A stretch of DNA of 64,000 nucleotides, taken from an uncultured virus (IMG/VR IMGVR_UViG_3300025433_000003). Lineage: Duplodnaviria > Heunggongvirae > Uroviricota > Caudoviricetes. The translations under genes and the position numbers were made by a program. This document shows positions 1,152-32,409 of this stretch, in pieces; positions within the stretch are counted from its first letter, which is position 1; every line of letters begins with the position of its first letter. The notes beneath the pieces are model-generated. The model ran no database searches. It was given only the letters and a program-made list of their open reading frames with translations, and had not been told where the DNA came from. Location of the stretch: the IMG/VR virus record IMGVR_UViG_3300025433_000003; one strand, given 5' to 3'.

Positions 1152-2756
1152 ATGGCAAAACCAAAAAAACAAATCAAAAAAATTGAATTAAATTTCATAA
1201 CATTTTTAAAAGAGTTAACTCAATTCTTAAATAAAGACAACTACGATATCAAAATTATTTTAAACTTGATAGAAAAATACGATGTTTCTCCACAATTCTT
1301 ATTTAAGAGATTGATTGCATATTCATATAATAATCCATACATAATATGGTATGTGAATAAGTATATGAACAGTAAGTTTGAATTTTATAAATACGATGTT
1401 GAAAATATATTAATTAGTGTTAAATATTTATTAAAGACTAATAATCATAATAGATTATTTTTTTTCAAAGCTAAAGATTTTAAAGACGAAAATAAGTCTA
1501 AAGTTAAAGTTCTATTAAAAGAATATTATTCAACAATAAATAGAAAATATTTAAATGATTTAGAATTAAATCATTTATATTTAATGTTTTCGAAAAATGT
1601 AATTACTATTGACGATCTTCAAAAAATGAACCAAATTTTAAATGGAGAAAAGACTAAGTTTAGTATTTCTGAAAATACTTTATCATCAACTATTGATTCG
1701 AATAAACCTCAAGTAGACACAGCTAAAATTGAAGAGTATATTAATTATCACATTAGTAAATTACTACCAGATAATATTTATTCTTTTATAACTGAACTGC
1801 AAGAGAAGAAGAATCAACTTTGTGAAAAATGTCCATTGTTTAGTAAAACTATGATATCATTAGACACTAATGTTCCAGACTTTCAACCTGTTGATTTTAT
1901 GTTTATAATGTTAAATCCTGGTAATGAAGAAGTGACGTATAAAAAATTGTGTGTTGGTAAAAGTGGAAAATTACTCAGAAGTAATATGTTTCAATTAAAT
2001 TCAAAAATATCTTGGGTGATTACTAATGTAATCCAATGTAATGCTGCAACTCAAAAAGATATTGGTAAGACAGAGAAAGCTATTAAACTTGTTGCAAATA
2101 AATGTAAACCATTCTTAGATGAAATTATTAAAAAGTTTCCTGCAAAATATTATGTTTTAGTTGGAAAACATTCTATGGAATCATTTGGAATAAAAGGTTC
2201 AATTACACAAAAAAGTGGATCAATCCAAACTGTAAATAATAACGTTGTAATTCCATTGATTCATCCTAGTTCTCTTATCAGAAACGATAATAACAGACCT
2301 GTTTATGATAAATCTTGGCAAGCAATCTATCAAATTGCAAATAAATTAACAAATTCACAAGCTGACAATAATAAACAAATTGATTCTGCAATTAATAAAC
2401 AGACACAACCAGAAATTAAAGTTTCTACAAATAAGTATAATATTGATGATTCAAAATTAATTACAGTAGATATTATCCCAGAAGATATGACATATTTTGA
2501 TAGTGTTAATTTAGATGGAAATGAAATATTGAATATTTTTATTCAAAACAAAACTTGTACGAAATTTTATCGGATTGTTGAATATAAAGTACCTATATTT
2601 ATTAAAAATATTACAGATTATAAAGAATGTAATATGTTAAATCAAGGATTTGAATCTGTTACTTATGTCAATGGTTGGAATAAATACAAGTTGTCGAAAG
2701 CCCTGAAAGATAATTTAATCAAACATCAATATGCTGCATTGAGTCAAAAAGGATAA
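1152..2756 (+). CDS. Uracil-DNA glycosylase superfamily domain protein (Fe-S type) with C-terminal PolB N-terminal-domain-like segment
   Basis: CEKCPL..MLNPGNEE..VGKSGKLL..ITNVIQC..CKPFLDEII..LVGK..IHPS matches the family-4-like UDG pattern. The C-terminal YFDSVNLDGNEILNIF..RIVEYKVPIF resembles the T4/RB69 gp43 N-terminus. Confidence 0.75.
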   Translation: MAKPKKQIKKIELNFITFLKELTQFLNKDNYDIKIILNLIEKYDVSPQFLFKRLIAYSYNNPYIIWYVNKYMNSKFEFYKYDVENILISVKYLLKTNNHNRLFFFKAKDFKDENKSKVKVLLKEYYSTINRKYLNDLELNHLYLMFSKNVITIDDLQKMNQILNGEKTKFSISENTLSSTIDSNKPQVDTAKIEEYINYHISKLLPDNIYSFITELQEKKNQLCEKCPLFSKTMISLDTNVPDFQPVDFMFIMLNPGNEEVTYKKLCVGKSGKLLRSNMFQLNSKISWVITNVIQCNAATQKDIGKTEKAIKLVANKCKPFLDEIIKKFPAKYYVLVGKHSMESFGIKGSITQKSGSIQTVNNNVVIPLIHPSSLIRNDNNRPVYDKSWQAIYQIANKLTNSQADNNKQIDSAINKQTQPEIKVSTNKYNIDDSKLITVDIIPEDMTYFDSVNLDGNEILNIFIQNKTCTKFYRIVEYKVPIFIKNITDYKECNMLNQGFESVTYVNGWNKYKLSKALKDNLIKHQYAALSQKG

Positions 2757-2762
2757 TTAATT

Positions 2763-4121
2763 ATGTGGTGCTACTTATCAATCGAACACGAAGAACAATA
2801 CCTTAGAAAATATCCCAAATTTCAAGAGTATTGGTCAGAACTAATTATATTGAAAACTGAAAAAACTTATTTTTTACCAAGATTGTTTTATTATAATTAT
2901 CCAGCTACAGAATTGGTTCAATATTTTGGGAAAGTTAAAGTTCCTATGGGACATATTGATTTAAAGTTTAGTGGTAAATTACGTCCTGCTCAAAAAGAAG
3001 CTGCTAAAGTTGTTGAAGATCTATTCTTTAAACAACAATATGTTAACGCAATCTTAAAACTTCCTCCAGGTTCTGGAAAAACTGTTCTAGCTGTTTATCT
3101 TGCAATTAAATTAAAATTAAAAACTTGTATAGTTATTGATAATAGTGAATTGTTAAAGCAATGGATTGTTGCAATTATGTCGTTCGGCAATTTGACCGAA
3201 AATGATATTGGATTAATCCGTGGAAAGATTTATAATGTTGACAAACCATTTACGATTGCTATGACACAATCACTTGGGTCTCAATTAAAAAGAAATTTTA
3301 ATCCATTTATGAAGAAGATAGATAAAGCTCAATTTGGGTTAGTTATCTATGACGAAGTACATTGTACATCATCATCTGAAATGTTTGCAAAGGTAAGTGT
3401 TTTCTTTCGAACTCGTAATGTTCTAGGATTATCTGCAACACCATTTCATAATGGTTGTGCTGAAGTGCTAATGAAAAACACAATTGGTAATATTGAATAT
3501 GAGTCAAAAGAATATGAAATGACTCCTAATTACAATCTTGTGTTTTATAATAGTGGGCTTCAAAAATATACTTTCGTCATGAATAAAATGACTGATTATA
3601 TTCAGAAGAAATCATATTATAATAAGATACTTGTACAGAGTGAAGCTTATCTTGATCTGATTGCTAGACTTTCTCAAAAGATGAGGACGGAAGGTCATAA
3701 TATAATTATCATATGTATGACAAAGAAACAGGTTAATTTGATTTCTGATCGCCTTACAGATGCAGGACTTGAAAATAGAAAATTCACTGGTACTGATCGA
3801 GAGATTGATAAAGAAAATGATACTCTTCTCGTGTGTACTTATCAAATGGTGGGCAAGGGATTTGACATGTCACGTCTAAGCGGGTTGATTCTTGCATCAC
3901 TGTTTTCTGGAAAGAAATCATTAATTCAAATTTGTGGTCGTGTACTTCGTTCTGAACCAGGTAAACTCAAACCAGCAATCTATGATTTAATAGATGGTGC
4001 GTTCCCCATGTTCACCATACCAGAAATTCGTAGAAAGAAGAAAATTATCACTGAAGAATTTCCTGGATGCAAAATTCGAGAATTTGATATAACTAAATCA
4101 CAGGATCAAATAGGAAATTAA
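2763..4121 (+). CDS. SF2 DNA helicase (UvsW/XPB-like)
   Basis: LRPAQ Q-motif, PPGSGKT, DEVH, LSATP, GFD, QICGRVLR. Confidence 0.9.
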   Translation: MWCYLSIEHEEQYLRKYPKFQEYWSELIILKTEKTYFLPRLFYYNYPATELVQYFGKVKVPMGHIDLKFSGKLRPAQKEAAKVVEDLFFKQQYVNAILKLPPGSGKTVLAVYLAIKLKLKTCIVIDNSELLKQWIVAIMSFGNLTENDIGLIRGKIYNVDKPFTIAMTQSLGSQLKRNFNPFMKKIDKAQFGLVIYDEVHCTSSSEMFAKVSVFFRTRNVLGLSATPFHNGCAEVLMKNTIGNIEYESKEYEMTPNYNLVFYNSGLQKYTFVMNKMTDYIQKKSYYNKILVQSEAYLDLIARLSQKMRTEGHNIIIICMTKKQVNLISDRLTDAGLENRKFTGTDREIDKENDTLLVCTYQMVGKGFDMSRLSGLILASLFSGKKSLIQICGRVLRSEPGKLKPAIYDLIDGAFPMFTIPEIRRKKKIITEEFPGCKIREFDITKSQDQIGN

Positions 4122-4125
4122 CTAT

Positions 4126-5538
4126 ATGCAAAGTAAGAATTTTCTAGAAAAAGACTTTTATAAGACCGTTGAAATTAAAGGTCGTTTAAAGAAAGTGCTG
4201 TACTCAGATAGTGTTGCTAAATATACGGAAACTATTATTAAAAGAAGTAATCGTAATCGTTGTTGTACAATAACATTTGATAAATTGTGGGACGAATTAT
4301 TATCTTATGGTAATATAATAACATATCAAGATGGTAAAGAATATATTTTTATTATTGATGATAAAATTAAGATATTAACTTATGATATTAAAACTGATAA
4401 AATGGTTCTTGATGTTCCTGAATATATTATGAGACATAAAGTAGATACTAAATTAGTTCAATTATCATTAAGTCCAACAAAAACTCTCGACATTACTAAT
4501 AATCATTCTTTGTTAAAATACAATAACAAAACAAAAGATTTTGATATAATTAAACCTATAGAATGTGAATATCTCCCTATAATTAATATTGACGATAATA
4601 AAGAATTATTAATTTTGGGAGAACCAATTGACAATCTTAAAAATATTAAGTCGTTGAAAACAAGTATTATTAACAAAATTGACTATGATGATTATGTGTA
4701 CGATTTATGTATTCCACAGACTCAAACTTTTATTGCTAATTTTTGTGTAGTTCATAACACTGACAGTATCTTCATCACAATTCCAACAAAAGAAGATGCA
4801 AGTCAATTAGCTCCAGATGAACTCTGGAACAAAGCAATTGAAGCTTCGAATGGAATCAATGATTTAATTATTGATTATACTAAAGATGTTTTATTACCAA
4901 GATGTAATATTAAACCTGAACACAATCAAACTTTCTTTAAAACAGAGTTGTTAATGGAATCGATTATGTTCCTTGATACCAAAAAAAGATACGCTTTCAA
5001 ACTGTTAATTAAGGAGGGGAACCCATTAAAAAAACCTAAAGTTTTCTATACAGGTATAGATGTAATCAAATCAAATGTTGCAAAATTAACTCAAGATTTA
5101 TTAAAAGAAATAATTGAAAATATTGCTTTGAATGCAGAAATTCTTCCAGAAAATAAACGACAAGTGTTAATCGACACAATCGGAAAATTCTATACTAAAT
5201 TTAATCAATGTGTAGATAATCTTGAAACTGATTATGTGGGGATTCCAGGGAAATGGGCTCGGTTAAAAAATATGATCAGTGGAATGAAATTATATAATCA
5301 TATAATGAATGAACCTATATTTGAACCTAGTTCATCTGCTAAATTTGTTTATATTCACCCAGTAACAATTGGTGAATTTAAAAATGTAAATGGAATATGT
5401 CTCCCGTATGAATTTAATACAGAACTTGTAAAAGAAAAATTTAACATATTTAAAATTAAAATTGATCGTAAACTTCATTGGAGTAAAGTTTATAATAAGA
5501 CTTGTGAAAGAGTTGTTGATCTCCTTAAAAAAAGTTGA
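4126..5538 (+). CDS. Family B DNA polymerase, C-terminal subunit (motif C and thumb), intein-containing
   Basis: Removing the intein restores VLYSD-TDSIF (motif C). Also KKRYA and YTGIDVIKSN. Confidence 0.88.
   Translation: MQSKNFLEKDFYKTVEIKGRLKKVLYSDSVAKYTETIIKRSNRNRCCTITFDKLWDELLSYGNIITYQDGKEYIFIIDDKIKILTYDIKTDKMVLDVPEYIMRHKVDTKLVQLSLSPTKTLDITNNHSLLKYNNKTKDFDIIKPIECEYLPIINIDDNKELLILGEPIDNLKNIKSLKTSIINKIDYDDYVYDLCIPQTQTFIANFCVVHNTDSIFITIPTKEDASQLAPDELWNKAIEASNGINDLIIDYTKDVLLPRCNIKPEHNQTFFKTELLMESIMFLDTKKRYAFKLLIKEGNPLKKPKVFYTGIDVIKSNVAKLTQDLLKEIIENIALNAEILPENKRQVLIDTIGKFYTKFNQCVDNLETDYVGIPGKWARLKNMISGMKLYNHIMNEPIFEPSSSAKFVYIHPVTIGEFKNVNGICLPYEFNTELVKEKFNIFKIKIDRKLHWSKVYNKTCERVVDLLKKS
4210..4758 (+). 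mobile_element. Mini-intein (183 aa) in PolB motif C
   Basis: Starts SVAKYTETII, has block B LDITNNHSL, ends YVYDLCIPQTQTFIANFCVVHN followed by Thr. No endonuclease motifs. Confidence 0.9.
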
Positions 5539-5565
5539 ATAGGTTTTTAATAATATCAACTTTTA

Positions 5566-5574
5566 TATATAAAT
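5566..5574 (+). promoter_or_regulatory. Recurrent TATATAAAT phage promoter-like motif (also at 12555, 13504, 13960, 29501, 34495, 37762, 51046, 60664)
   Basis: Nine intergenic copies, mostly shortly upstream of gene starts. 5561-5587 is identical to 13955-13981. Confidence 0.65.
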
Positions 5575-5643
5575 TATTAATGTATAACACTTTATTTTCA
5601 AATTTCAAAATTCAAAATTTAGCAAAAAAAAGGAAATTTAAAA

Positions 5644-6270
5644 ATGGAAATATCAATTACCCGAGCACTCGCCGAATGCAAACTTCTTGAAAAACGAATC
5701 ACAAAAAAAACTAACGAATATACACCGATTATCATCCAGAAAGGGGAAGACAGTATTCCAGGATTTGGTGAAGTTGACAAGTTTAAAAAATATTCATTGG
5801 CAGAACACTTGTCTATTATTGATTTGACTAATCGACGAATGGTTATTAAAAGAGCGATTATTTTGTCGAACACACAGACTAAAATTACTATTAATGAAGA
5901 AGAAATGTCAGTGACAGAAGCAATTGATTTCAAAAATATTATTATATTGTGGGAACAGTTATTTGTTCGATTGAGAAGAGAAAAAGCATCGATTACTGAA
6001 AAATACGAATATTTGATGGAATCAGTTAATGAAAGACTAGATACATTACTGATGGCGAATCTGAATAAAGATAAATCAAAAATCAAGCCTGACGAAATGG
6101 AAAGCATTTCAGCTCCATTTTTGAAACGTAATGCTCCAAAAATTATTGACCCTATTGACATTACCGGTAAAATCAACGACCTTGAACACAAAATTAACGA
6201 ATTTAAATTAAACATAGATTTTATTCTTTCAGAGTCAAACTCCCGGACTTTGATAAATATTGCTGATTAA
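5644..6270 (+). CDS. Helical/coiled-coil hypothetical protein (tentatively DIP1984-like) upstream of a structured repeat RNA
   Basis: Good RBS. ISITRALAECKLLEKRI at the N-terminus, MSVTEAI in the middle, IDFILSESNSRTLINI at the C-terminus. Family similarity is from memory only. Confidence 0.75.
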   Translation: MEISITRALAECKLLEKRITKKTNEYTPIIIQKGEDSIPGFGEVDKFKKYSLAEHLSIIDLTNRRMVIKRAIILSNTQTKITINEEEMSVTEAIDFKNIIILWEQLFVRLRREKASITEKYEYLMESVNERLDTLLMANLNKDKSKIKPDEMESISAPFLKRNAPKIIDPIDITGKINDLEHKINEFKLNIDFILSESNSRTLINIAD

Positions 6271-6279
6271 AAAAATAAT

Positions 6280-6614
6280 ATAGTGAGTATACCGAGGATT
6301 AAAATTCAGACTGGTCTTTCAAGGGCTGACCAAAAAAATGCCCTTCAGTTTCCAACTCATACTTGGAAAACACTTAAATGGTGTAATAATCATTAGATTA
6401 TTACTAGTATTAGACCCATAAAGTCTAATTACAAGGAGCTATTATAGCGCCTGACATTTAAAGTTTAAATTTCAAAGATTAAAATTCAACGATTAAAACT
6501 TAAAGGTTAAACCATCAAATCTTAAAAGTCAAATCTAAAATTTTATAAAATCCTTGAGTAATTAAAAAAGTTTGTCTGATCCTGTAAATCGAACGAGGCT
6601 GGTATGCTTACTAT
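6280..6614 (+). ncRNA. Putative structured ncRNA with internal 7-nt repeat array
   Basis: 14-bp closing helix 6280-6293/6601-6614, H-type pseudoknot 6312-6345, hairpins at 6349-6369, 6383-6404 and 6409-6429, long-range pairings 6294-6300/6549-6555 and 6306-6311/6574-6579. No ORF. Confidence 0.7.
6457..6541 (+). repeat. Degenerate tandem heptamer array NTYAAAN, about 12 units
   Basis: tttaaag tttaaat ttcaaag attaaaa ttcaacg attaaaa cttaaag gttaaac (c) atcaaat cttaaaa gtcaaat ctaaaat. Confidence 0.8.
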
Positions 6615-6658
6615 CTTAACAATTTTATAAATAGTCTTAAAAAAAAGGAAACCAAAAA

Positions 6659-7036
6659 ATGACTGAAGAGAGTACTGTTATTGAAAAAATTGATAATAAA
6701 ATTATAGGCAAACTAGATCTAATTGAACTAGTTTGCGAAAAAGGTAATTTCACTAAATCAGAATCAACAAGAGCTATTGAATGTGTACTGTCAATTATTA
6801 AAGATAGTGTAAAGAACGAAAAAGAAGTTCAGATTAGAAAGTTCGGTAGTTTTATTCCTGCAATTCAAAAAGCTTTCACTGGTAGAAATCCCAGCACAGG
6901 TGAGTCTATTGAAGTAGCTGAGAAAAAGACTCTTCGATTTAAACCATCTAAATTATTTAAGAAGTATATTAACGACGAAGTATCTGATAATGATAACGAC
7001 GATGAAGATGAAGATGAACTTGTTGAAGATGAATAG
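6659..7036 (+). CDS. HU/IHF family DNA-binding protein with acidic tail
   Basis: VQIRKFGSF..FTGRNPSTGESIEVAEKKTLRFKPSKLFK. Confidence 0.92.
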   Translation: MTEESTVIEKIDNKIIGKLDLIELVCEKGNFTKSESTRAIECVLSIIKDSVKNEKEVQIRKFGSFIPAIQKAFTGRNPSTGESIEVAEKKTLRFKPSKLFKKYINDEVSDNDNDDEDEDELVEDE

Positions 7037-7148
7037 CGATTAAAGATTATTAAAGGCATTGTCACAATACATTATATTGAACACATGTATTGTTGGCGAT
7101 GCCTATTTATTTTAACATTTAACATTAATCAAAGGGTTCATTTAAAAA

Positions 7149-9695
7149 ATGGTAGAACTAGAGTTACCCGATGTTATTGATAAATTAGAACAGGGTGAAT
7201 TAAATTATTATCAATTCTATAATGCTGAAATAAATAGCGATCATCATTATTCAATCGATCATTATACTCGTTATGGTGAACGCGATAATTTGGATGTTGA
7301 TCAAGAATTAAAAGTTGTGTTTATTGATCTCGAGGTGTTTAAATGCGAACTTGATAAATTACGTAACAAGCAAGCGACAGGAATTATTAATTCAGTTTGT
7401 GTTTATGACAGTCACTCACAAACATATTATTTGTTTAGTTTGCTTATGATGACACAGAATTATTCATTAGTCGATACTAATGACCCTGGTAAATATGAAA
7501 AACAATTCAAAGAAGAATTAGTTGCTGAAAAATATTTGAAAGCGAGCGATAAACTTCGTGTCTTTTTTTATGTTGATGAAGAATTAAAGATGCTTGAAGA
7601 TATATGGAGATTGATTCATCAAATTGACCCTACTGTGTTGTCTGGATTTAATTTTAATAATTTTGATCTACCGTACATATATTATAGATTGAAATATTTA
7701 TATAATGATGATATTGATAAAGTTGCTAATACTCTTAGTAAATTTGGTGTGGTTAAAGCTCGATCATTTGGTTTTAATAATAACATTGAAATTGCTGAAT
7801 ATCCTGTGGCGGACATTCGACAATTATATATTCCTCGCTCGGAGAACGGGTTGAATTACGGCAAGTCTTTATCTAAGTACTCCCTTAATTTTATTGCTGA
7901 GGAAGAACTTGGAATAAAGAAGATTGAACATCAAGATCTATCGTTCGATCAATTCTATACAAGAGAACCAGTAGAATTTTTTAAATATAATATTGCAGAT
8001 GTATCTGTTTGTGTGCAATTAAATGATAAACTCAAACATATTGAGTTACATAACTTATTGAGACGGGATATGAAGACTTCATTCACAGCAAGTTTAATTG
8101 GGTCGTCTTCATTCTTTTCAACGATGTTTAATTATGAATTGAAAAAGAAATCACTTGGAATGAGGTTTGGTTTATTACAGGAACAGGCACATTCAATTGG
8201 TCAAGAAGAAATAGACATGATTGAACGCCCTAAAGAGAAATCCGTTAAATGGAATATCACTAGTATAGACCAGAAGACATATCGTAAAATAATGAGCAGA
8301 TTTGTTGGAGCTTATGTCAAAGAAGGACTCGGCAAGACTCTTACTATTAATGATGGTATATTAGTCGATATGGATGCAAGTTTACCTCCAGAAGAAAAGA
8401 TATTTATTCGTAAAAATAATATTAAATATTCTTTAAATGTTGGTGATTATGAATGGGAAGAAAATGATGAAACTTTAACTTGGAATAAAAATAATGAGGT
8501 GTGTTGGAAAAGAGTTAAAGGAAAAACTGAACATGATTGGAATGGTAAATTAATTAAATTACTAACTAACTGTTATGAAGCTGTGACGGTAACTGACAAT
8601 CATAGTATATTCAGTTCGTTGACTAATAATATCAATGATATTAAATTGGTCAACGCTGGAGAATTAAAAATTGGCAATTATATTGTTGTTAGATCTAAGA
8701 TAAACAATCAAATTATATTAGAAAAAATTAAATCAATAGAAGTTATAGATTATACAGGTAAAGTCTATGACTTAACAGTAGAAGAAACTGAACGTTTCTT
8801 TGCTGGTTCTGGAATTGGAGTTCATAATACTGCCTTGTATCCCTCAATGATGCGTCAGTCGAACATATCATTCGATTCATATTTTGGTCGAGTGATTGAT
8901 CCTGTTGCATATAAATTTATTAACACAGTTAGTAATGCAATCGAGCACAATCAAGATATTATTCCACAACTAAAAACAATGATATTTAACGAAATTAAAA
9001 AATCTGTTGAACGTCTTGATCCACAAAACAAAAACAATCATAAACAGTATATTTATATTATCTTTATGAAATTATTAAAAGATATTCTTAATGCTAAAGT
9101 ACCAATTAAGCAATTACTTACACCAACAACTCAACATGAATATTTGTTATTAAAAAGTTATTTACTCCCATTATTAGATATATTGACAGAGATAATGAAA
9201 GTTCCAGAGTATCATACATTTGCATATAATTATATATTGAATTTTGATGAAACAACAAATCCATGGGTACTTATTGTTGAAAATGAAAATGATTATAATT
9301 GTTGTGTTAAAAAAGTTGATTCAGTAAATTTTGGAAAATATTTGGTTGATAAACAATTGAGTTTTAATTTATCTGGAGCAATTTTTGCAACACATGAAAA
9401 ACATAAAGGAATATTAAACCATTTCTTAACTGAACGTCTTGCTTTAAGAAGTGAGTATAAAACTAAAAGAGATACTTTTCCTCACGGATCAAATGAATAT
9501 CAGTTCTTTGATCGTAGACAGTTATCTATGAAAATTAATGCTAATTCAAGTTATGGTTTGACAGGCATGGCAAGTTTCTTATTTTCAAATCGACAATTAG
9601 CAATGTCTACAACATTATCAGGGAGATTATGTTTGAAAATCTCACAAGCTTGTGGAGAGTTATACTTAAACAATTTAGAAAAGGAACTGATGTAG
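7149..9695 (+). CDS. Family B DNA polymerase, exonuclease plus motifs A and B subunit, intein-containing
   Basis: Exo I FIDLEV, Exo II GFNFNNFDLPY, Exo III YNIADV, FVGAYV, DMDA/TALYPS (motif A), KINANSSYG (motif B). Ends before motif C. Confidence 0.92.
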   Translation: MVELELPDVIDKLEQGELNYYQFYNAEINSDHHYSIDHYTRYGERDNLDVDQELKVVFIDLEVFKCELDKLRNKQATGIINSVCVYDSHSQTYYLFSLLMMTQNYSLVDTNDPGKYEKQFKEELVAEKYLKASDKLRVFFYVDEELKMLEDIWRLIHQIDPTVLSGFNFNNFDLPYIYYRLKYLYNDDIDKVANTLSKFGVVKARSFGFNNNIEIAEYPVADIRQLYIPRSENGLNYGKSLSKYSLNFIAEEELGIKKIEHQDLSFDQFYTREPVEFFKYNIADVSVCVQLNDKLKHIELHNLLRRDMKTSFTASLIGSSSFFSTMFNYELKKKSLGMRFGLLQEQAHSIGQEEIDMIERPKEKSVKWNITSIDQKTYRKIMSRFVGAYVKEGLGKTLTINDGILVDMDASLPPEEKIFIRKNNIKYSLNVGDYEWEENDETLTWNKNNEVCWKRVKGKTEHDWNGKLIKLLTNCYEAVTVTDNHSIFSSLTNNINDIKLVNAGELKIGNYIVVRSKINNQIILEKIKSIEVIDYTGKVYDLTVEETERFFAGSGIGVHNTALYPSMMRQSNISFDSYFGRVIDPVAYKFINTVSNAIEHNQDIIPQLKTMIFNEIKKSVERLDPQNKNNHKQYIYIIFMKLLKDILNAKVPIKQLLTPTTQHEYLLLKSYLLPLLDILTEIMKVPEYHTFAYNYILNFDETTNPWVLIVENENDYNCCVKKVDSVNFGKYLVDKQLSFNLSGAIFATHEKHKGILNHFLTERLALRSEYKTKRDTFPHGSNEYQFFDRRQLSMKINANSSYGLTGMASFLFSNRQLAMSTTLSGRLCLKISQACGELYLNNLEKELM
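8379..8828 (+). mobile_element. Mini-intein (150 aa) in PolB motif A
   Basis: Starts SLPPEEKIFI, block B VTVTDNHSIF, ends VYDLTVEETERFFAGSGIGVHN followed by Thr. Confidence 0.92.
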
Positions 9696-29573: not shown

Positions 29574-32409
29574 ATGCAAATAACCAGTGTTAATCTTAGT
29601 ACATTACCATTTTTAGGGGCTTGTGATTCAACTAGAGCTCAAATGGCATCCAAACAAGCAGCACAAGCAATAACTCATGAAAATTGTCAAATACCTTATG
29701 TTATTTCAAATGAATATCGTAATTTATCTGAAACAAGCTTTCTTGGGTTATGTATTGCAAAAGATGATGGCTATGTTGTATTTAATAGCAATGAACTAAT
29801 TATTATTTTTTACACTAATTTAAACGAACTTAAAGAGTATAAGATTCCCCTGTATCAGAAGACTACAGGATATTATTGTTCTAAATTAACTTATATGCTA
29901 TCGAAAGATCAACCTTTTAAAAAGGGTGATATTATATATAGTTATGATAATTTTAAGAATGGTATTCCAGCATTTGGTTATAATACACTAACAGCTTATA
30001 TAAATGGTTTTGGGTTAAAATATTAAGCCCCATTTATTAGTAATAATAAATGCAAATTTTGTGAATTCAGGGGAAGCCTAAGTCTAAATGGTAATCCTGA
30101 GCCAAGCCTCTTGTGCTAGAGAGGAAGGTGCAACGACTATCCCTTTGGGGAGTACACTCAAGTGAGTGGAAGCACAAAACATCGATTAATGTCGATGATG
30201 ATATAGTCTGCTCTGTATAGAAATATACAGCGGGATTTATTCCGGGGAGAACCGTAGCGATTTATCTCGAACATAAAGGTTAACCACGAAGATTCTCTAC
30301 TATTGAGTGAAAGTTTTTTAGAAAGAGCCAAAGTTAGATTAAGTGAGAAAGTGTATATTCCTGTATTTGAATATACTATTTTGTTGCCTTCATATAATGA
30401 TGTAGAAGGATCATTAAAATACTTTCCAAATGTTGGACAAAAAATACATGGTAATGTTGTTTGTTCTGTACTTAAACCAAGTTCAATGCGAGCATTTGAA
30501 TCACTTTCAACTATTAAAACTAAGATGACTCGTTTTTATAATTCACTAACACTTTCAGATTTATTGAATTTGAATAACGAGAGCACTCAAGCGATTAAAG
30601 TTGATGGTATTACTTCAAAAATTAAAGGTGGTAAAGTTACCGGAATAAGTGTTCATAAACTCTATAAGAAAGAAGTTCCTCAATTAATAGATGGAAAACT
30701 TCAAAAGTGTCTAGATAAACTTGTCAATATGCAAACAGATGAAAGTATTATTGCTCCGTTTAATGATTTACAATATAAGATTAATCGCGATTATGCAAAA
30801 CAAATAATTAAAAATTATATGATGTATATTCCAGATACTATTTCTGCGAATGCTAGTATGCTTAAAAATGCTAAATATTTAATCGAACTAGAAATTACTC
30901 GTGAGAGTGGTAGTCAAAAGGGAGATAAGTTTGCAAATCGTTTGTAAAATAGCGACTTTTAAAAGTAATTTTAATCGAATAACGCCTCTTTATCAGGGAA
31001 ACTCTAAACAGATAATGCTGAAGATAATCCTGAGCCAAGCTTTAATAATATATTAAATATTATTATTGAAGGTGCAACGACTATCGAAATCACATTTATT
31101 ATTTTATAATAGATGGAAGAAAGTAGAGTACACTCTTAGTGGAGTGGAAACGGGGCGGGTCCAATTTGATTGGATCGTGATATAGTCTGGCCTATATAGA
31201 AATGTATAGAAGGAGAGAAATAACGAATCTCTTCGTAACACAAGCGTATGCAGGAAAAGGAATAGCAAGTGATCCATTACCAGATGAGTTAAGACCAATT
31301 GCTATGAGTTGCAATCGACCTATTGATTGTATATTCAATTCCTTTGGCTGTTACAGCAGAATGAACATCAGTCAGTTGATTGAAGGAGTGGTTTCAAAAG
31401 AAGTAATGCTAAGTGAAGAACAAATGTTAAACGACCCAAACTGTTGTATTTCTGAGTTGACTAAAATTAACGAAAATATAATTAGTAATCTAAATACTAC
31501 TGATTATTATACAGATGTTAGTAATTTAATTTCTCGAATGAATGAAGATCCTCAAGTTGTTAAAGAATTTATTAAAGATGTTAAGACTAATGGATTTTTC
31601 ATTGAAGCACCAAGCTTCAGTGTATTAAATATTAAAAAATTAATCAAACAAAACCGATCACATGTTGAACATATTAAGATTAAAAAAGAGACTTTAAATT
31701 ATATGAAAGATAAGTTAAAGTTTGAATTACCATTTACAATCAATAATGATGTTATTATTAAGAATAAGTTTGTGGTACCAATTTACACTTTTAAACTCTA
31801 TAAGATGGTTTCTGAAATTGTTGCTGCTCGTGACCTTGGTAAATGTCGTTTTATAACGAAGCAACCTTTGCGTGGTAAATCGAACGACGGAGGAAAACGT
31901 TTGGGTCAGATGGAGATTAACCGAATCGGTCTCCTACACATAGTAATATGTGTATAAAAAACTCTTTTAACTCGGTGGACTTCCTAACAGATAATGCTGA
32001 GGTCAATACCGAGCCAAGCTCTATATGTTTTAACGACATATATTGAAGGTGTAACGACTATCCCGTAAGGGAGTACCTGGAAATGCGAGCCAGGGAAACA
32101 GAGAGTATCCTATAACTTATAGGATAAAGATATAGTCTACTCTGCATGGATAACATGCAGCAGGGTGAACGATTTCCCGGAAAATGAGTCGCGATCTTTT
32201 TCGAATATTAAAGCGAAGGAATTATAGCTCATGGAACTATGAAGTCCCTCCACGAATTATTGACTGTTAAATCTGATTGTGCAGATGCTAAAAAGAAAAT
32301 GTTGAAAGATATCATAACAGACGGGGAGTATCATATGGATACTTCAGTTAGTCATGATGGAGAAACTAAAAAAGTTGTAGATACATTAATTAAATTTATT
32401 AACGATTAA
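29574..32409 (+). CDS. Phage RNA polymerase beta, C-terminal subunit; join(29574..30015,30280..30941,31247..31917,32214..32409), 656 aa
   Basis: DSTRAQMASKQAAQA. Splicing restores GFGFNHEDS, GDKFANR|YAGKG and GGKRLGQMEIEGIIAHG..LLTVKSD. Confidence 0.92.
30016..30279 (+). mobile_element. Group I intron (264 nt, ORF-less)
   Basis: P1 GGGU/GCCC; AATCCTGAGCCAAG, GCAACGACTA, ATATAGTCT; terminal G; reading frame restored. Confidence 0.9.
30942..31246 (+). mobile_element. Group I intron (305 nt, ORF-less)
   Basis: P1 UCGU/GCGA; same core motifs; terminal G; restores NR|YAGKG. Confidence 0.9.
31918..32213 (+). mobile_element. Group I intron (296 nt, ORF-less)
   Basis: P1 GGAGAU/GUCUCC; AATACCGAGCCAAG, GTAACGACTA, ATATAGTCT; terminal G; restores QMEIEG. 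Confidence 0.9.

Follow-up and report, generated by a model that had tools for sequence, protein, structure and literature searches.

Does the gene for a helical protein in an uncultured virus form a functional unit with a structured noncoding RNA encoded directly behind it, and what might such a unit do? The question was raised by an earlier interpretation, made from the letters alone, of a 64,000-nt stretch of viral DNA (IMG/VR record IMGVR_UViG_3300025433_000003). That whole stretch is referred to here as the window and the interpretation as the sequence-only reading. It proposed a protein-RNA pair in which a pseudoknotted RNA displays about 12 heptamer repeats to an oligomeric protein.

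RESULTS

A structured RNA accompanies the protein gene

The two elements from which that proposal started, a 208-aa open reading frame (ORF) and an ORF-poor region after it, are both present (Table 1). The largest ORF on the ORF list that overlaps positions 6275 to 6655 encodes 38 aa and lies away from the single-stranded tract, and the ORF-poor stretch runs from the protein gene to a gene for HU that starts at 6659. The RNA begins 10 nt past the protein stop codon, with no terminator in the gap. Taken alone, the fold of the window RNA is moderately unusual (minimum free energy [MFE], -77.9 kcal/mol; z, -4.22; equaled by 0 of 100 shuffles), and the minus strand of the same region gives a z of -3.27; comparison across the family puts the fold far beyond chance. 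Neighboring genes in the window include replication genes (PolB pieces, HU, and a helicase). ARAGORN found no tRNA in the 64-kb window, and a blastn search of window positions 5000 to 8000 against phage records gave no match. Sigma-70-like promoter matches (15, versus 7.4 expected) were set aside as uninformative at 25 to 30% GC and in a phage with its own RNA polymerase.

Table 1. Coordinates of the protein gene, the RNA, and its parts in the window
Feature	Position	Strand	Description
Protein gene	5644-6270	+	208-aa ORF, predicted all-helical; phrog_1491, distantly DUF6847/DIP1984-like; constant partner of the RNA
Structured RNA	6280-6614	+	335 nt, from outer end to outer end of the closing helix
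P1, 5' arm	6280-6294	+	Pairs with 6600-6614; 15 bp including 3 G-U
Long-range pseudoknot, 5' strand	6306-6311	+	Pairs with 6574-6579
H-type pseudoknot PK1	6312-6345	+	S1, 6312-6316/6328-6332; S2, 6321-6326/6340-6345; A-rich loop 3
Variable region	6346-6449	+	Several MFE hairpins; alignment columns poor
Heptamer tract	6450-6548	+	~12 units of n-U-Y-A-A-A-G; 8 in phase, a phase shift, 4-5 more
3' domain	6552-6598	+	Helix 6552-6556/6594-6598 around a hairpin
P1, 3' arm	6600-6614	+	Pairs with 6280-6294

Searching 139 fetched loci with a profile built from 41 RNAs, we detected the RNA directly 3' of the protein gene, in the same (+) orientation, in all but L128, L136, and L139 (136/139). Loci from bacterial genomes, none of which had been used in building the profile, carried the RNA in 52 of 55 cases. 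At least 200 nt free of any ORF of 60 aa or more followed the protein gene in 73 of 80 IMG/VR loci, and among 73 distinct downstream sequences, 63 contained a closing helix of 11 bp or more with a span no greater than 400 nt. Across the family the RNA measures ~250 to 400 bases. In an alignment of 41 sequences and 27 pairs (A2), 91.3% of cells were paired versus 58.5% after shuffling, and the covariation score was 0.754 versus 0.205; none of 500 shuffles was as high on either count, and slid controls gave 33 to 44% paired cells. Compensatory changes were seen in four helices. Homologues thus keep both the downstream fold, with covariation, and the 7-nt repeats, and the proposal of a gene pair made up of a protein and a noncoding RNA is borne out by the 136/139 linkage and the covarying helices. 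Conserved as a family, the RNA has a long closing helix, two pseudoknots, a 3' domain, and ~12 phased heptamers, and it nearly always accompanies the protein gene, whether in a phage or in a bacterial chromosome.

Two pseudoknots and a closing helix organize the RNA

The closing helix, P1, had been read as 14 bp (6280-6293/6601-6614) and proved to be one pair longer. In the A2 alignment, its 14 aligned pairs were 94.1% paired, with both-side changes at 14/14; its frequent G-U pairs fit the + strand only. Two crossing long-range pairings had also been proposed. The first, between 6306-6311 and 6574-6579, is present in the window and kept across the family: in a position-restricted test (an unconstrained complementarity search was not discriminating), self complementarity scored 6.10 versus 4.76 for non-self, a value reached by 0 of 5000 permutations, and the corresponding A2 columns (56-63/540-547) were 80.6% paired, with double changes at 7 of 8 pairs. 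The second, 6294-6300/6549-6555, found no support, as 6552-6556 pairs instead with 6594-6598, in 41/41 aligned RNAs.

The H-type pseudoknot PK1 lies exactly where the sequence-only reading had placed it. A position-anchored search recovered it in the window, where 1.5% of 200 shuffles reached its score, and at the equivalent place in 35 of the 41 aligned RNAs, in 29 of which no more than 5% of shuffles did so; an unconstrained version of the search is not discriminating in AT-rich RNA (7/41 at the 5% level). Its second stem occurs in 32 distinct versions among the family RNAs. The variable region that follows is the insertion site of whole tRNA genes in three relatives (L013, L019, and L031). 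In the 3' domain, pairing reached 90.7% versus 68.2% in shuffles (0/500 as high), and the hairpin loop at 6574-6579 supplies the partner strand of the long-range pseudoknot. A conserved A-A-A-U-C-C motif precedes this domain and G-G-C-U-G follows it, leading into P1; the RNA core carries several invariant unpaired motifs.

The heptamer tract keeps its phase across the family

Tandem Repeats Finder (TRF) reported a period of 7 over 6457-6511 (7.9 copies; 64% matches; score, 40) and also a period of 14 (78% matches). A separate repeat scan gave 8 good in-phase units at 6450-6512 and more units beyond a phase shift. Family-wide, 12 units could be aligned, so the array of ~12 phased heptamers in the original proposal stands. 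The U is present in 88 to 100% of sequences in 11 of the 12 units and in 73% in the remaining one, and the first A is present in 93 to 100% in 11 of 12, giving a family core of U-N-A-A-R. The phase and the core bases are kept, whereas the remaining positions vary, much as had been noticed in the window. RNAalifold leaves the tract unpaired. Repeat number is only roughly constant, and hairpins break up the tract in some members. The idea that the heptamers are complementary to anticodon loops or T-loops, or imitate them, was set aside, since the conserved positions suit a U-N-R turn equally.

Searches among known RNAs

The absence of a named RNA family, suspected from the letters, held up in Rfam 15 and ARAGORN: neither gave a match for the RNA, and Rfam 15 showed none to RNase P RNA, ROOL, GOLLD, OLE, 6S, Y RNA, or tmRNA. 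Matches at the gathering threshold in the window and 20 phage loci were limited to tRNAs and group I introns, those at E<=10 in window positions 6100 to 6800 to two at chance level, and those at E<=0.1 in 10 bacterial loci to tRNAs. A full-text literature search, with subscription journals and bioRxiv supplements outside its scope, found no description of the RNA or the protein. The available part of a catalogue of phage csRNAs (PMC10690425) does not mention the RNA, and four contig ids are absent from 6 of its supplementary files; RNA fragments may be listed in others. Rad, the anti-retron protein of T5-like phages, is a different protein (189 aa; TOPRIM), as described in the available text of bioRxiv 10.1101/2023.03.15.532788. 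That text does not give the identity of ORF71-73 and hence offers no link.

RNA contigs from T5-infected cells

In phage T5 (locus L060), the predicted RNA spans 3136 to 3492. We examined RNA library contigs from runs of two studies, data in which strand and true abundance are not readable and contig ends are a weak hint. In run X8, adapter abutted position 3130, contigs over 3130-3190 had depths of 2350 to 3833, and a contig over 3161-3495 had a depth of 831, compared with 328 in the upstream and 477 in the downstream flank. In run X9, a contig ended at 3480 with adapter. The contigs break 3 nt past the stop codon of the protein gene, and depth over the RNA exceeds that over the gene. Thus, RNA contigs from T5-infected cells start or stop only a few bases from the predicted ends, a weak hint of where the RNA begins and ends. 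By analogy with T5, the mature RNA of the window probably ends a few nucleotides outside 6280-6614.

The protein is a predicted helical bundle that may self-associate

The window protein matched phrog_1491 (E, 6.8e-51; residues 2 to 206) and no Pfam family. Its family comprises 3,532 cluster representatives (50% identity; E<=1e-3), labeled "tail fiber protein" or "hypothetical" in GenBank; the "tail fiber protein" label of phrog_1491 was rejected as unsupported by fold, context, and the bacterial chromosomal copies. The predicted structure is all-helical (pLDDT, 89). Conserved polar residues are T6, R7, K13, K69, S75, N76, K97, S198, and N199. A PDB sequence search returned nothing below an E of 0.06, the ESM Atlas gave only unnamed clusters and a weak DUF6847 lead, and PADLOC gave no consistent match. 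No longer fused forms of the protein were found in our search, which is weak evidence.

When four copies of the protein were modeled alone, self-association was predicted with an ipSAE of 0.45, versus 0.00 for the best control; runs shared at least 78% of contacts, with a partner pLDDT of at least 78. A calibration with two copies, not four, placed 20 of 30 solved homo-pairs and 1 of 23 single chains at or above the pass mark for self-association. The modeled interface is symmetric, with the same residues on both copies, which favors a dimer over a ring or filament. Of the proposed oligomerization into a ring or filament, self-association is therefore supported by the model, whereas the ring or filament is not, the interface being dimer-like and not head-to-tail.

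A possible distant resemblance to DUF6847 proteins and their downstream RNAs

By sequence and modeled structure, the protein appears distantly like DUF6847/DIP1984 (PF20935, NF038048; PDB 3kdq). Its best PDB fold match was 3kdq_A (VIA-align Z, 11.9; rmsd, 5.9; 151 residues of 152 aligned), with the next entry at 7.7. Foldseek gave an E of 6e-3 for 3kdq, and hhalign against DUF6847 gave a probability of 55.9% (E, 1.1e-4; 87 columns), scores to be read knowing that helical bundles often score middling. A motif around S75-N76 and the following helix is common to both in the hhalign alignment. The window protein is ~55 residues longer and did not reach the curated Pfam or NCBIfam cutoffs for DUF6847 (0 families). 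Among 18 relatives, one matched PF20935 at an E of 0.04 and one matched NF038048 at 0.13.

Behind DUF6847 genes in Bacilli there is likewise a conserved RNA-like element, whose ends are paired and which has the same layout of P1 plus pseudoknot. Unlike the heptamer RNA, that element lacks a heptamer tract, and the two share no detectable primary-sequence similarity. Rfam searches of 14 DUF6847 loci gave nothing beyond tRNAs, group I introns, and chance-level matches. As a lead only, the type of RNA appears to change with the protein subfamily. In four weaker DUF6847-like loci, a tract is present that has a 7-nt period but a different unit.

Genomic context and distribution

Hosts range from Proteobacteria to Bacillota. 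In phages, the RNA lies in or beside tRNA clusters, with a tRNA in 27 of 49 loci; in 10 of 41 members a tRNA follows within 13 nt of the RNA, and the 3 members named above carry tRNAs inside it. The tRNA link does not hold for most bacterial copies, which occur as solitary inserts amid unrelated chromosomal genes, far from any origin. The locus is syntenic in 8 species of the Bacillus pumilus group, where identity is 87 to 90% for the RNA, 82 to 85% for the gene, and 79 to 84% for the flanks, and a syntenic chromosomal locus is found in 7 species of Exiguobacterium. In Bacillus safensis, an intrinsic terminator directly follows P1.

Besides the RNA, no neighbor is conserved across the loci compared, and context thus gives little functional direction. 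Genes scattered through the phage neighborhoods include an RNase J-like gene and genes for an RNA ligase, a Rv2179c-like exoribonuclease, PIN-PhoH, and cREC_REC. One Brevibacillus copy lies near an AbiEii-like gene. An "smpB" label on a neighbor in phage Pyxpy02 is without Pfam support.

DISCUSSION

A protein-bound heptamer array and its alternatives

The reading that we favor, and to which we give an even chance, is that the locus specifies a new ribonucleoprotein (RNP) in which a pseudoknotted core displays an array of heptamers to which the protein binds; the binding, its stoichiometry, and the function are what we infer. The module would consist of two parts, a helical protein of ~208 aa and a structured RNA of its own, encoded in the DNA that directly follows the gene. 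The two pseudoknots and the closing helix would form a compact clamp, from which the heptamer tract would loop out as a single strand with both ends held together. The protein, predicted by modeling to self-associate, would bind the heptamers through a patch formed by the conserved polar residues listed above. One heptamer per subunit would yield an RNP of fixed stoichiometry, with ~12 subunits or 6 dimers. The phage RNA may be freed from tRNA-type polycistronic transcripts, and the particle may act in RNA or translation-related metabolism. The repeats could instead be contacted by a host factor, by a different RNA, or by a second copy of the RNA that carries them, and adjacency of gene and RNA is by itself weak evidence of physical contact.

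A bolder form of this reading, which we regard as rather doubtful, would make the locus the founding example of an RNP class shared by large lytic phages and Bacillota. Here the clamp would hold ~12 heptamers in a closed loop, covered by ~12 copies (6 dimers) of the protein, one heptamer each, in the manner of a nucleocapsid or TRAP. The heptamer "code" would coevolve with the protein subfamily, DUF6847 relatives having other RNA partners, and the particle would be made from tRNA operons and act on tRNAs or the translation apparatus during infection.

It seems to us unlikely that the RNA is itself the active agent, whether as a ribozyme, as a ligand- or ribosome-binding RNA, or as an RNA-only multimer like ROOL, GOLLD, or OLE, with the protein a chaperone, a stabilizer, or simply cotranscribed and the heptamers serving RNA-RNA or RNA-host contacts. 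A core with two pseudoknots and invariant unpaired motifs is as elaborate as those of catalytic and ornate RNAs, in the B. pumilus group the RNA has diverged less than the protein gene, and its location recalls that of GOLLD, which lies in tRNA clusters and hosts embedded tRNAs. However, near-absolute linkage to one protein family argues for a direct partnership, as does an RNA type that seems to differ from one protein subfamily to the next, and Rfam gave no match to ROOL, GOLLD, OLE, or a ribozyme.

The repeat tract might alternatively be a decoy or sponge for a factor of the host or a competitor, such as an RNA-binding regulator, a ribonuclease, or an anticodon-directed defense nuclease, loaded or protected by the protein and serving phage counterdefense or host takeover. 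Multisite sponge RNAs of the CsrB type are an established principle and a precedent for such a role, and the phage module sits amid tRNAs and scattered RNA metabolism genes. The available text on T5-like phages also describes anti-defense genes as clustering in the tRNA region (bioRxiv 10.1101/2023.03.15.532788). The vertical inheritance and synteny of the chromosomal copies in Bacillus and Exiguobacterium nevertheless speak against a sponge, and with hosts from Proteobacteria to Bacillota its target would need to be universal; PADLOC gave no consistent matches, and Rad is another protein. We consider this role distinctly improbable.

Very unlikely, in our estimation, is a toxin-antitoxin or abortive infection pair of a type III-like kind, in which the protein would be a toxin neutralized by the adjacent repeat RNA. 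Such a pair would account for a cassette of two genes that is complete in itself and occurs both in phages and as solitary chromosomal inserts, for the pairing of a protein with a repeat RNA, and for the AbiEii-like gene near the Brevibacillus copy. But the units are 7 nt rather than ~35 nt, the RNA lies 3' rather than 5' of the gene, its structured core is large and nonrepetitive, the helical protein matches neither ToxN/AbiQ nor another nuclease in Pfam or PADLOC, and the locus is syntenic in 8 Bacillus and 7 Exiguobacterium species. Chromosomal copies that are stable and syntenic, together with PADLOC results that show no consistent match, lend no positive support to a role in defense or as a toxin-antitoxin.

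Less probable again is a cis-acting element in the 3' untranslated region, that is, an autoregulatory operator or a stabilizer of the mRNA of the protein gene. The operator of T4 gene 32 has unstructured A/U-rich repeat content and a site size of 7 nt. The available text of PMC10690425 describes it as a pseudoknot bound by its own protein, a precedent for the present arrangement, in which the RNA begins 10 nt past the stop codon with no intervening terminator. Against such an element stand the T5 contigs, which break 3 nt past the stop codon with adapter abutting and show greater depth over the RNA than over the gene; the tRNAs within 13 nt in 10 of 41 members and embedded in 3; and a double-pseudoknot core of 330 nt, which far exceeds what an operator needs. 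Finally, a DNA-level element (a replication origin, iterons, or a packaging site) or chance structure in AT-rich DNA, which AT-rich short direct repeats beside replication genes and the excess of sigma-70-like matches might suggest, has almost no probability left, being already contradicted by the 136/139 linkage in fixed orientation and by helix covariation in four helices with G-U pairs that suit one strand only, besides the T5 RNA ends, the B. safensis terminator right after P1, and the chromosomal copies far from any origin.

Significance

A structured, expressed RNA of ~365 nt with a dedicated partner appears to have gone unannotated in T5, a classic model phage, and also in the well-studied Bacillus pumilus and licheniformis groups. 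New RNA classes of a complexity like that of tmRNA or RNase P are rare, more so with a candidate protein partner of their own. The 12-fold heptamer array offers an obvious biochemical handle, and tractable systems carry the module, which is short and self-contained. The favored protein-bound array could open a new line of work on RNA in phage-host relations and account for some of the "dark" content in the tRNA regions of large phages. It would also supply a function for DUF6847/DIP1984, a family with a crystal structure (3kdq) but no function to go with it since 2009.

Comparison with known systems

The closest overall resemblance, and a resemblance only, is to tmRNA (SsrA) and SmpB. Both RNAs measure ~260 to 400 nt, have paired 5' and 3' ends, and place an H-type pseudoknot just 5' of a single-stranded tract that is followed by more structure; both have a small protein partner of their own (here a candidate) and occur in large phages near tRNAs. 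Permuted tmRNAs are two-piece RNAs, and an inserted tRNA would similarly split the heptamer RNA in two. Unlike tmRNA, however, the heptamer RNA has no tRNA-like acceptor/T-arm end (ARAGORN found 0 tmRNAs in the window and 49 loci) and no tag reading frame, there being no ORF over the tract and a 7-nt period not being a codon multiple. The partner, unlike SmpB, is a helical protein.

With TRAP and the trp leader, HutP and hut, and CsrA and CsrB, assemblies of an oligomeric protein on short RNA motifs at periodic spacing, the locus shares ~12 short motifs at fixed spacing in presumably single-stranded RNA, which is the signature of one site per subunit. It differs from them in its 7-nt period and U-N-A-A-R core, in an array clamped by a large pseudoknotted core within a stand-alone RNA rather than an mRNA leader, and in an unrelated protein fold with a modeled dimer-like interface and putative RNA binding. 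Type III toxin-antitoxin systems (ToxIN, CptIN, and TenpIN) likewise place a protein gene beside a repeat RNA in phage and chromosomal cassettes. Their antitoxin, however, consists of tandem repeats of ~34 to 36 nt 5' of the toxin, whereas here 7-nt units lie 3' of the gene, the RNA core is nonrepetitive, and the all-helical model has no ToxN/AbiQ fold.

The large ornate RNAs GOLLD and ROOL and the stable RNAs C and D of the T4 tRNA cluster are, like the heptamer RNA, structured noncoding RNAs with no assigned role that lie in phage tRNA regions and are, or in the case of the heptamer RNA may be, processed with tRNAs. GOLLD and ROOL are larger and T4 RNAs C and D smaller, with no Rfam match between them and the heptamer RNA, which is set apart from all of them by its heptamer array and its constant tie to one protein gene.

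A conserved structured RNA follows the gene for a helical protein

The RNA directly downstream of the 208-amino-acid (208-aa) ORF is conserved, elaborately folded, and genetically locked to one protein family. Nearly all of the anatomy proposed for it in the sequence-only reading was borne out. No ORF longer than 38 aa occurs between the protein gene and the HU-like gene; the closing helix (P1), the H-type pseudoknot near the 5' end (PK1), and the heptamer repeats were likewise present. TRF reported the repeats with a period of 7 (7.9 copies) and with a period of 14 (78% matches). Of the two long-range pairings that had been proposed, the one between the segment just 5' of PK1 and the loop of a 3' hairpin stood, but the other (6294-6300/6549-6555) clashes with a conserved 3' helix. 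Folded alone, the window RNA had a z score of -4.22 and beat 100 of 100 shuffled sequences.

Features of the protein-RNA module and its surroundings in the window and in related loci
Sequence	Feature	Position	Strand	Remark
Window	208-aa ORF	5644-6270	+	
Window	P1 closing helix	6280-6294/6600-6614	+	15 bp, three G-U pairs
Window	Long-range pairing	6306-6311/6574-6579	+	
Window	PK1 H-type pseudoknot	6312-6316/6328-6332 and 6321-6326/6340-6345	+	
Window	Heptamer tract	about 6450 to 6548	+	TRF and a scan for units
Window	Conserved 3' helix	6552-6556/6594-6598	+	
Window	HU-like DNA-binding protein gene	start 6659		next gene after 208-aa ORF
Window	Group I intron 1	30000-30230		106.5 bits
Window	Group I intron 2	30934-31209		61.5 bits
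Window	Group I intron 3	31908-32160		68.2 bits
L060 (T5)	Rv2179c-like 3'-5' exoribonuclease gene	1482-2180		upstream nearby
L060 (T5)	Family ORF	stop 3127		
L060 (T5)	Predicted RNA	3136-3492		
L060 (T5)	cREC_REC gene	3570-3884		3' of RNA
L082	cREC_REC gene	4070-4387		3' of RNA
L013	Complete tRNA in variable region of RNA	3232-3308		
L019	Complete tRNA in variable region of RNA	3213-3287		
L031	Complete tRNA in variable region of RNA	3203-3277		
L077	tRNA in variable region of RNA	3147-3221		probable
L140, L142-L150, L155	DUF6847-linked element	e.g., L140, 1930-2175		

The annotated phages Bf23, Pyxpy02, and Thurquoise, which belong to different families, have an unannotated gap of 385 to 560 nt 3' of the homologous gene, and at 73 of 80 IMG/VR loci the gene is followed by at least 200 nt without an ORF of at least 60 aa. 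Heptamers and conserved motifs recur in the downstream sequences, and a closing helix of 11 to 21 bp, spanning 256 to 397 nt, was found in 63 of 73 distinct ones; its inner end is mostly C-G/G-U in the same arrangement, and its sequence is wholly different between lineages. For an alignment of 41 RNAs, RNAalifold returned P1 and the 3' helix, with 10 to 25 double changes at most pairs. Across P1, the long-range pseudoknot, and the 3' helix (94.1%, 80.6%, and 98.5% paired, respectively), 91.3% of cells were paired, compared to 58.5% in shuffled alignments and 33 to 44% in slid controls, and the covariation score was 0.754 versus 0.205 in shuffles (0 of 500 as high). Two more covarying helices lie in the 3' domain (90.7% versus 68.2% in shuffles; 0 of 500). 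PK1 occupies the homologous position in 35 of the 41 RNAs, with a score reached by at most 5% of shuffles in 29 of these, and its stem 2 exists in 32 distinct versions. The long-range segments were more complementary to their own partners than to those of other RNAs (6.10 versus 4.76; 0 of 5,000 permutations as high). Because G-U pairs are frequent, the plus strand is the RNA strand. In the alignment, the tract of heptamers comprises about 12 units with the consensus n-U-Y-A-A-A-G, in which the U (88 to 100%) and the first A (93 to 100%) are each nearly invariant in 11 units and the remaining positions are variable; the break after unit 7 is the place of a hairpin in some members. Homologues thus keep both the covarying fold and the 7-nt phase.

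The RNA is linked to the protein gene in phages and bacteria

Searched with a nhmmer profile of the alignment, the window and 136 of 139 loci each gave a single match, which lies immediately 3' of the protein gene in the same orientation; those missed were L128, L136, and L139. Because 41 sequences went into the profile and near-duplicates are numerous among the T5-like loci, linkage is fairly tested by the bacterial genome assemblies, whose 55 loci contributed nothing to the profile; 52 of these were matched. The bacterial copies come from Brevibacillus, Paenibacillus, the Bacillus pumilus and Bacillus licheniformis groups, Exiguobacterium, clostridia, and some MAGs, and they are solitary cassettes with ordinary chromosomal genes around them rather than parts of prophages. 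Synteny of the locus extends over 8 pumilus-group and 7 Exiguobacterium species, an intrinsic terminator follows the closing helix in B. safensis, and identity within the pumilus group is higher for the RNA (87 to 90%) than for the gene (82 to 85%) or the flanks (79 to 84%). That the chromosomal copies are stable favors a cellular function borrowed by phages.

Three copies were found in archaeal bins. No copy is closer to the window module than one of these (L085), which shares 76% protein identity, has the RNA, and lies on a 3-kb contig binned as a Woesearchaeota MAG; the others (L087 and L110) come from Bathyarchaeia and Methanosarcinales bins. All three are probably mis-binned phage contigs rather than archaeal genes.

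The protein self-associates in a model and has possible RNA-linked relatives

The window protein matched phrog_1491 (E value, 6.8e-51) and had no Pfam match. Using tblastn, we found relatives in 684 phage records, with carriers including T5-like phages, Pseudomonas phages of ~98 kb, Klebsiella phages of ~145 kb, Bacillus phage Thurquoise, jumbo Erwinia phages, Lactococcus phages, and phiCD211. An exhaustive profile search returned 3,532 representatives at an E value of ≤1e-3 and 1,456 at ≤1e-30; among 150 representatives listed, length was mostly about 200 to 215 aa, with a few up to 280, and a search for longer fused forms found none. Relatives are labeled "hypothetical" or "tail fiber protein" in GenBank. 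The latter label (e.g., OR083247.1, 39086-39724; L082, 2989-3627) is probably a propagated annotation error, because the protein is a 208-aa helical bundle encoded outside structural modules and also by a solitary chromosomal gene in Bacillota.

An AlphaFold model (pLDDT 89) predicted an all-helical protein with short strands at the termini, for which the sole standout PDB entry was 3kdq, a Corynebacterium diphtheriae protein of unknown function (Z, 11.9; rmsd, 5.9; 151 of 152 residues aligned; runner-up, 7.7). Weak sequence signals likewise point to the family of that structure, DUF6847/DIP1984 (hhalign against eight DUF6847 proteins: probability, 55.9%; E value, 1.1e-4). A four-copy model supports self-association, with a predicted ipSAE of 0.45, whereas none of three controls exceeded 0.00; different runs have at least 78% of contacts in common, and the partner pLDDT is at least 78. 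In a two-copy calibration, 20 of 30 solved homo-pairs reached the ipSAE mark, as against 1 of 23 single chains. The earlier proposal of an oligomer thus found support in modeling, but its ring or filament did not: the modeled interface appears dimer-like because both copies contribute identical residues. A conserved polar patch (N terminus, S75-N76/K97 hairpin, and C-terminal S-E-S-N motif) lies mostly apart from the modeled interface, with K69 and S75 falling inside the interface residue ranges.

Of 201 Bacilli genomes sampled, 14 carry genuine DUF6847 (PF20935) genes, encoding 153 to 172 aa. A conserved RNA-like element of ~230 to 260 nt follows these genes; its ends are paired, and it has an H-type pseudoknot in the layout of the window RNA and a G-rich 3' motif, joined in 5 of 9 loci by a T-arm-like hairpin. 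The element has no heptamers and no Rfam match; neither its profile nor that of the window RNA detects the other family, and the two show no sequence similarity. The tracts downstream of four weak DUF6847-like genes (L151 to L154; 173 to 183 aa) also repeat every 7 nt, but their unit differs, being roughly n-n-U-U-R-A-C (lag-7 match, 0.40 to 0.52, versus 0.15 to 0.34 at other lags); in L151, a closing helix and the G-G-C-U-G motif are present as well. The repeat motif therefore seems to differ between protein subfamilies. If the pattern holds, the entire protein superfamily would be RNA partnered, its repeat motif shifting with the protein, and no other indirect evidence would speak as strongly for the protein recognizing the RNA directly.

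Genomic context and expression in T5

The window is AT-rich phage DNA, and its genome is jumbo-phage-like, as judged from a split multisubunit RNA polymerase, an RNA ligase, a ribonucleotide reductase, and three group I introns. The introns are clustered among ORFs matching phage multisubunit RNA polymerase beta-like subunits and HNH endonucleases. The protein-RNA module and the HU gene lie between two pieces of a family B DNA polymerase (4126-5538 and 7149-9695), each with an intein, and the C-terminal-part piece is upstream of the exonuclease and N-terminal piece.

There is no tRNA in the window. A scan of 49 phage loci found at least one in 27, without exception on the same strand. Among the 41 aligned RNAs, 10 have a tRNA that begins 4 to 13 nt past the closing helix, and some RNAs contain one in their variable region. 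These adjoining and embedded tRNAs suggest that the phage RNA derives from tRNA-type polycistronic precursors and that its variable region can accommodate an insert, which would be removed during processing. Processed tRNA-bearing members would then be two-piece RNAs, joined by P1 and the long-range pseudoknot. Among 119 neighboring ORFs at 35 loci, scattered RNA-metabolism genes occur along with much else, and there is no constant neighbor besides the RNA. The surroundings in T5-like phages, with an exoribonuclease gene nearby in T5, suggest an RNA-processing neighborhood. The gene after the RNA in these phages has a cREC_REC (cyclic-phosphate processing receiver) domain (E value, 3e-15). In Pseudomonas phage Pyxpy02, a 74-aa "smpB SsrA-binding protein" encoded just upstream of the family gene (L083, 2706-2930) has no Pfam support at an E value of ≤0.1.

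Public RNA libraries contain T5 sequences. In one run (X8), contigs begin at 3130-3131 of the T5 locus, with adapter abutting 3130 in one; depth was 2,350 to 3,833 over 3130-3190 and 831 over 3161-3495, compared to 328 upstream and 477 downstream, although strand and level are not readable from such contigs. In another run (X9), a contig ends at 3480, with adapter behind it. That these breaks coincide with the predicted RNA ends is a weak hint, consistent with a discrete RNA of ~365 nt freed right after the stop codon.

Proposed ribonucleoprotein and comparison with known systems

Given the strict 7-nt spacing and the conserved polar patch, we favor a ribonucleoprotein in which the protein would bind the RNA, and we put the chances of this as even. 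P1 would stack on the 3' helix, and the pair of pseudoknots would draw the 5' domain and the 3' domain together as a compact core; the heptamer tract, with each of its ends leading back to this core, would form a closed single-stranded loop. One heptamer would be read per subunit, as expected from two nearly invariant bases strictly 7 nt apart with the rest free to vary. An assembly of ~12 subunits on the array, perhaps six dimers, is a more tentative proposal than the ribonucleoprotein itself. For the phage copies, the genomic surroundings hint at a role in the metabolism of RNA or in translation-related metabolism.

The sequence-only reading had recognized no named RNA family, and neither phage nor bacterial versions of the RNA matched a family in Rfam 15. 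Full-text literature searches turned up no description of the RNA or protein; a large catalogue of phage candidate RNAs (PMC10690425) does not mention the RNA in the passages or the part of its supplements consulted. PADLOC gave no consistent match, and ARAGORN called no tmRNA in the window or the 49 loci. The anti-retron Rad of T5-like phages is a different protein from the family protein. Compared with type III toxin-antitoxin systems, the module departs from the defining features of unit length, gene order, and toxin fold.
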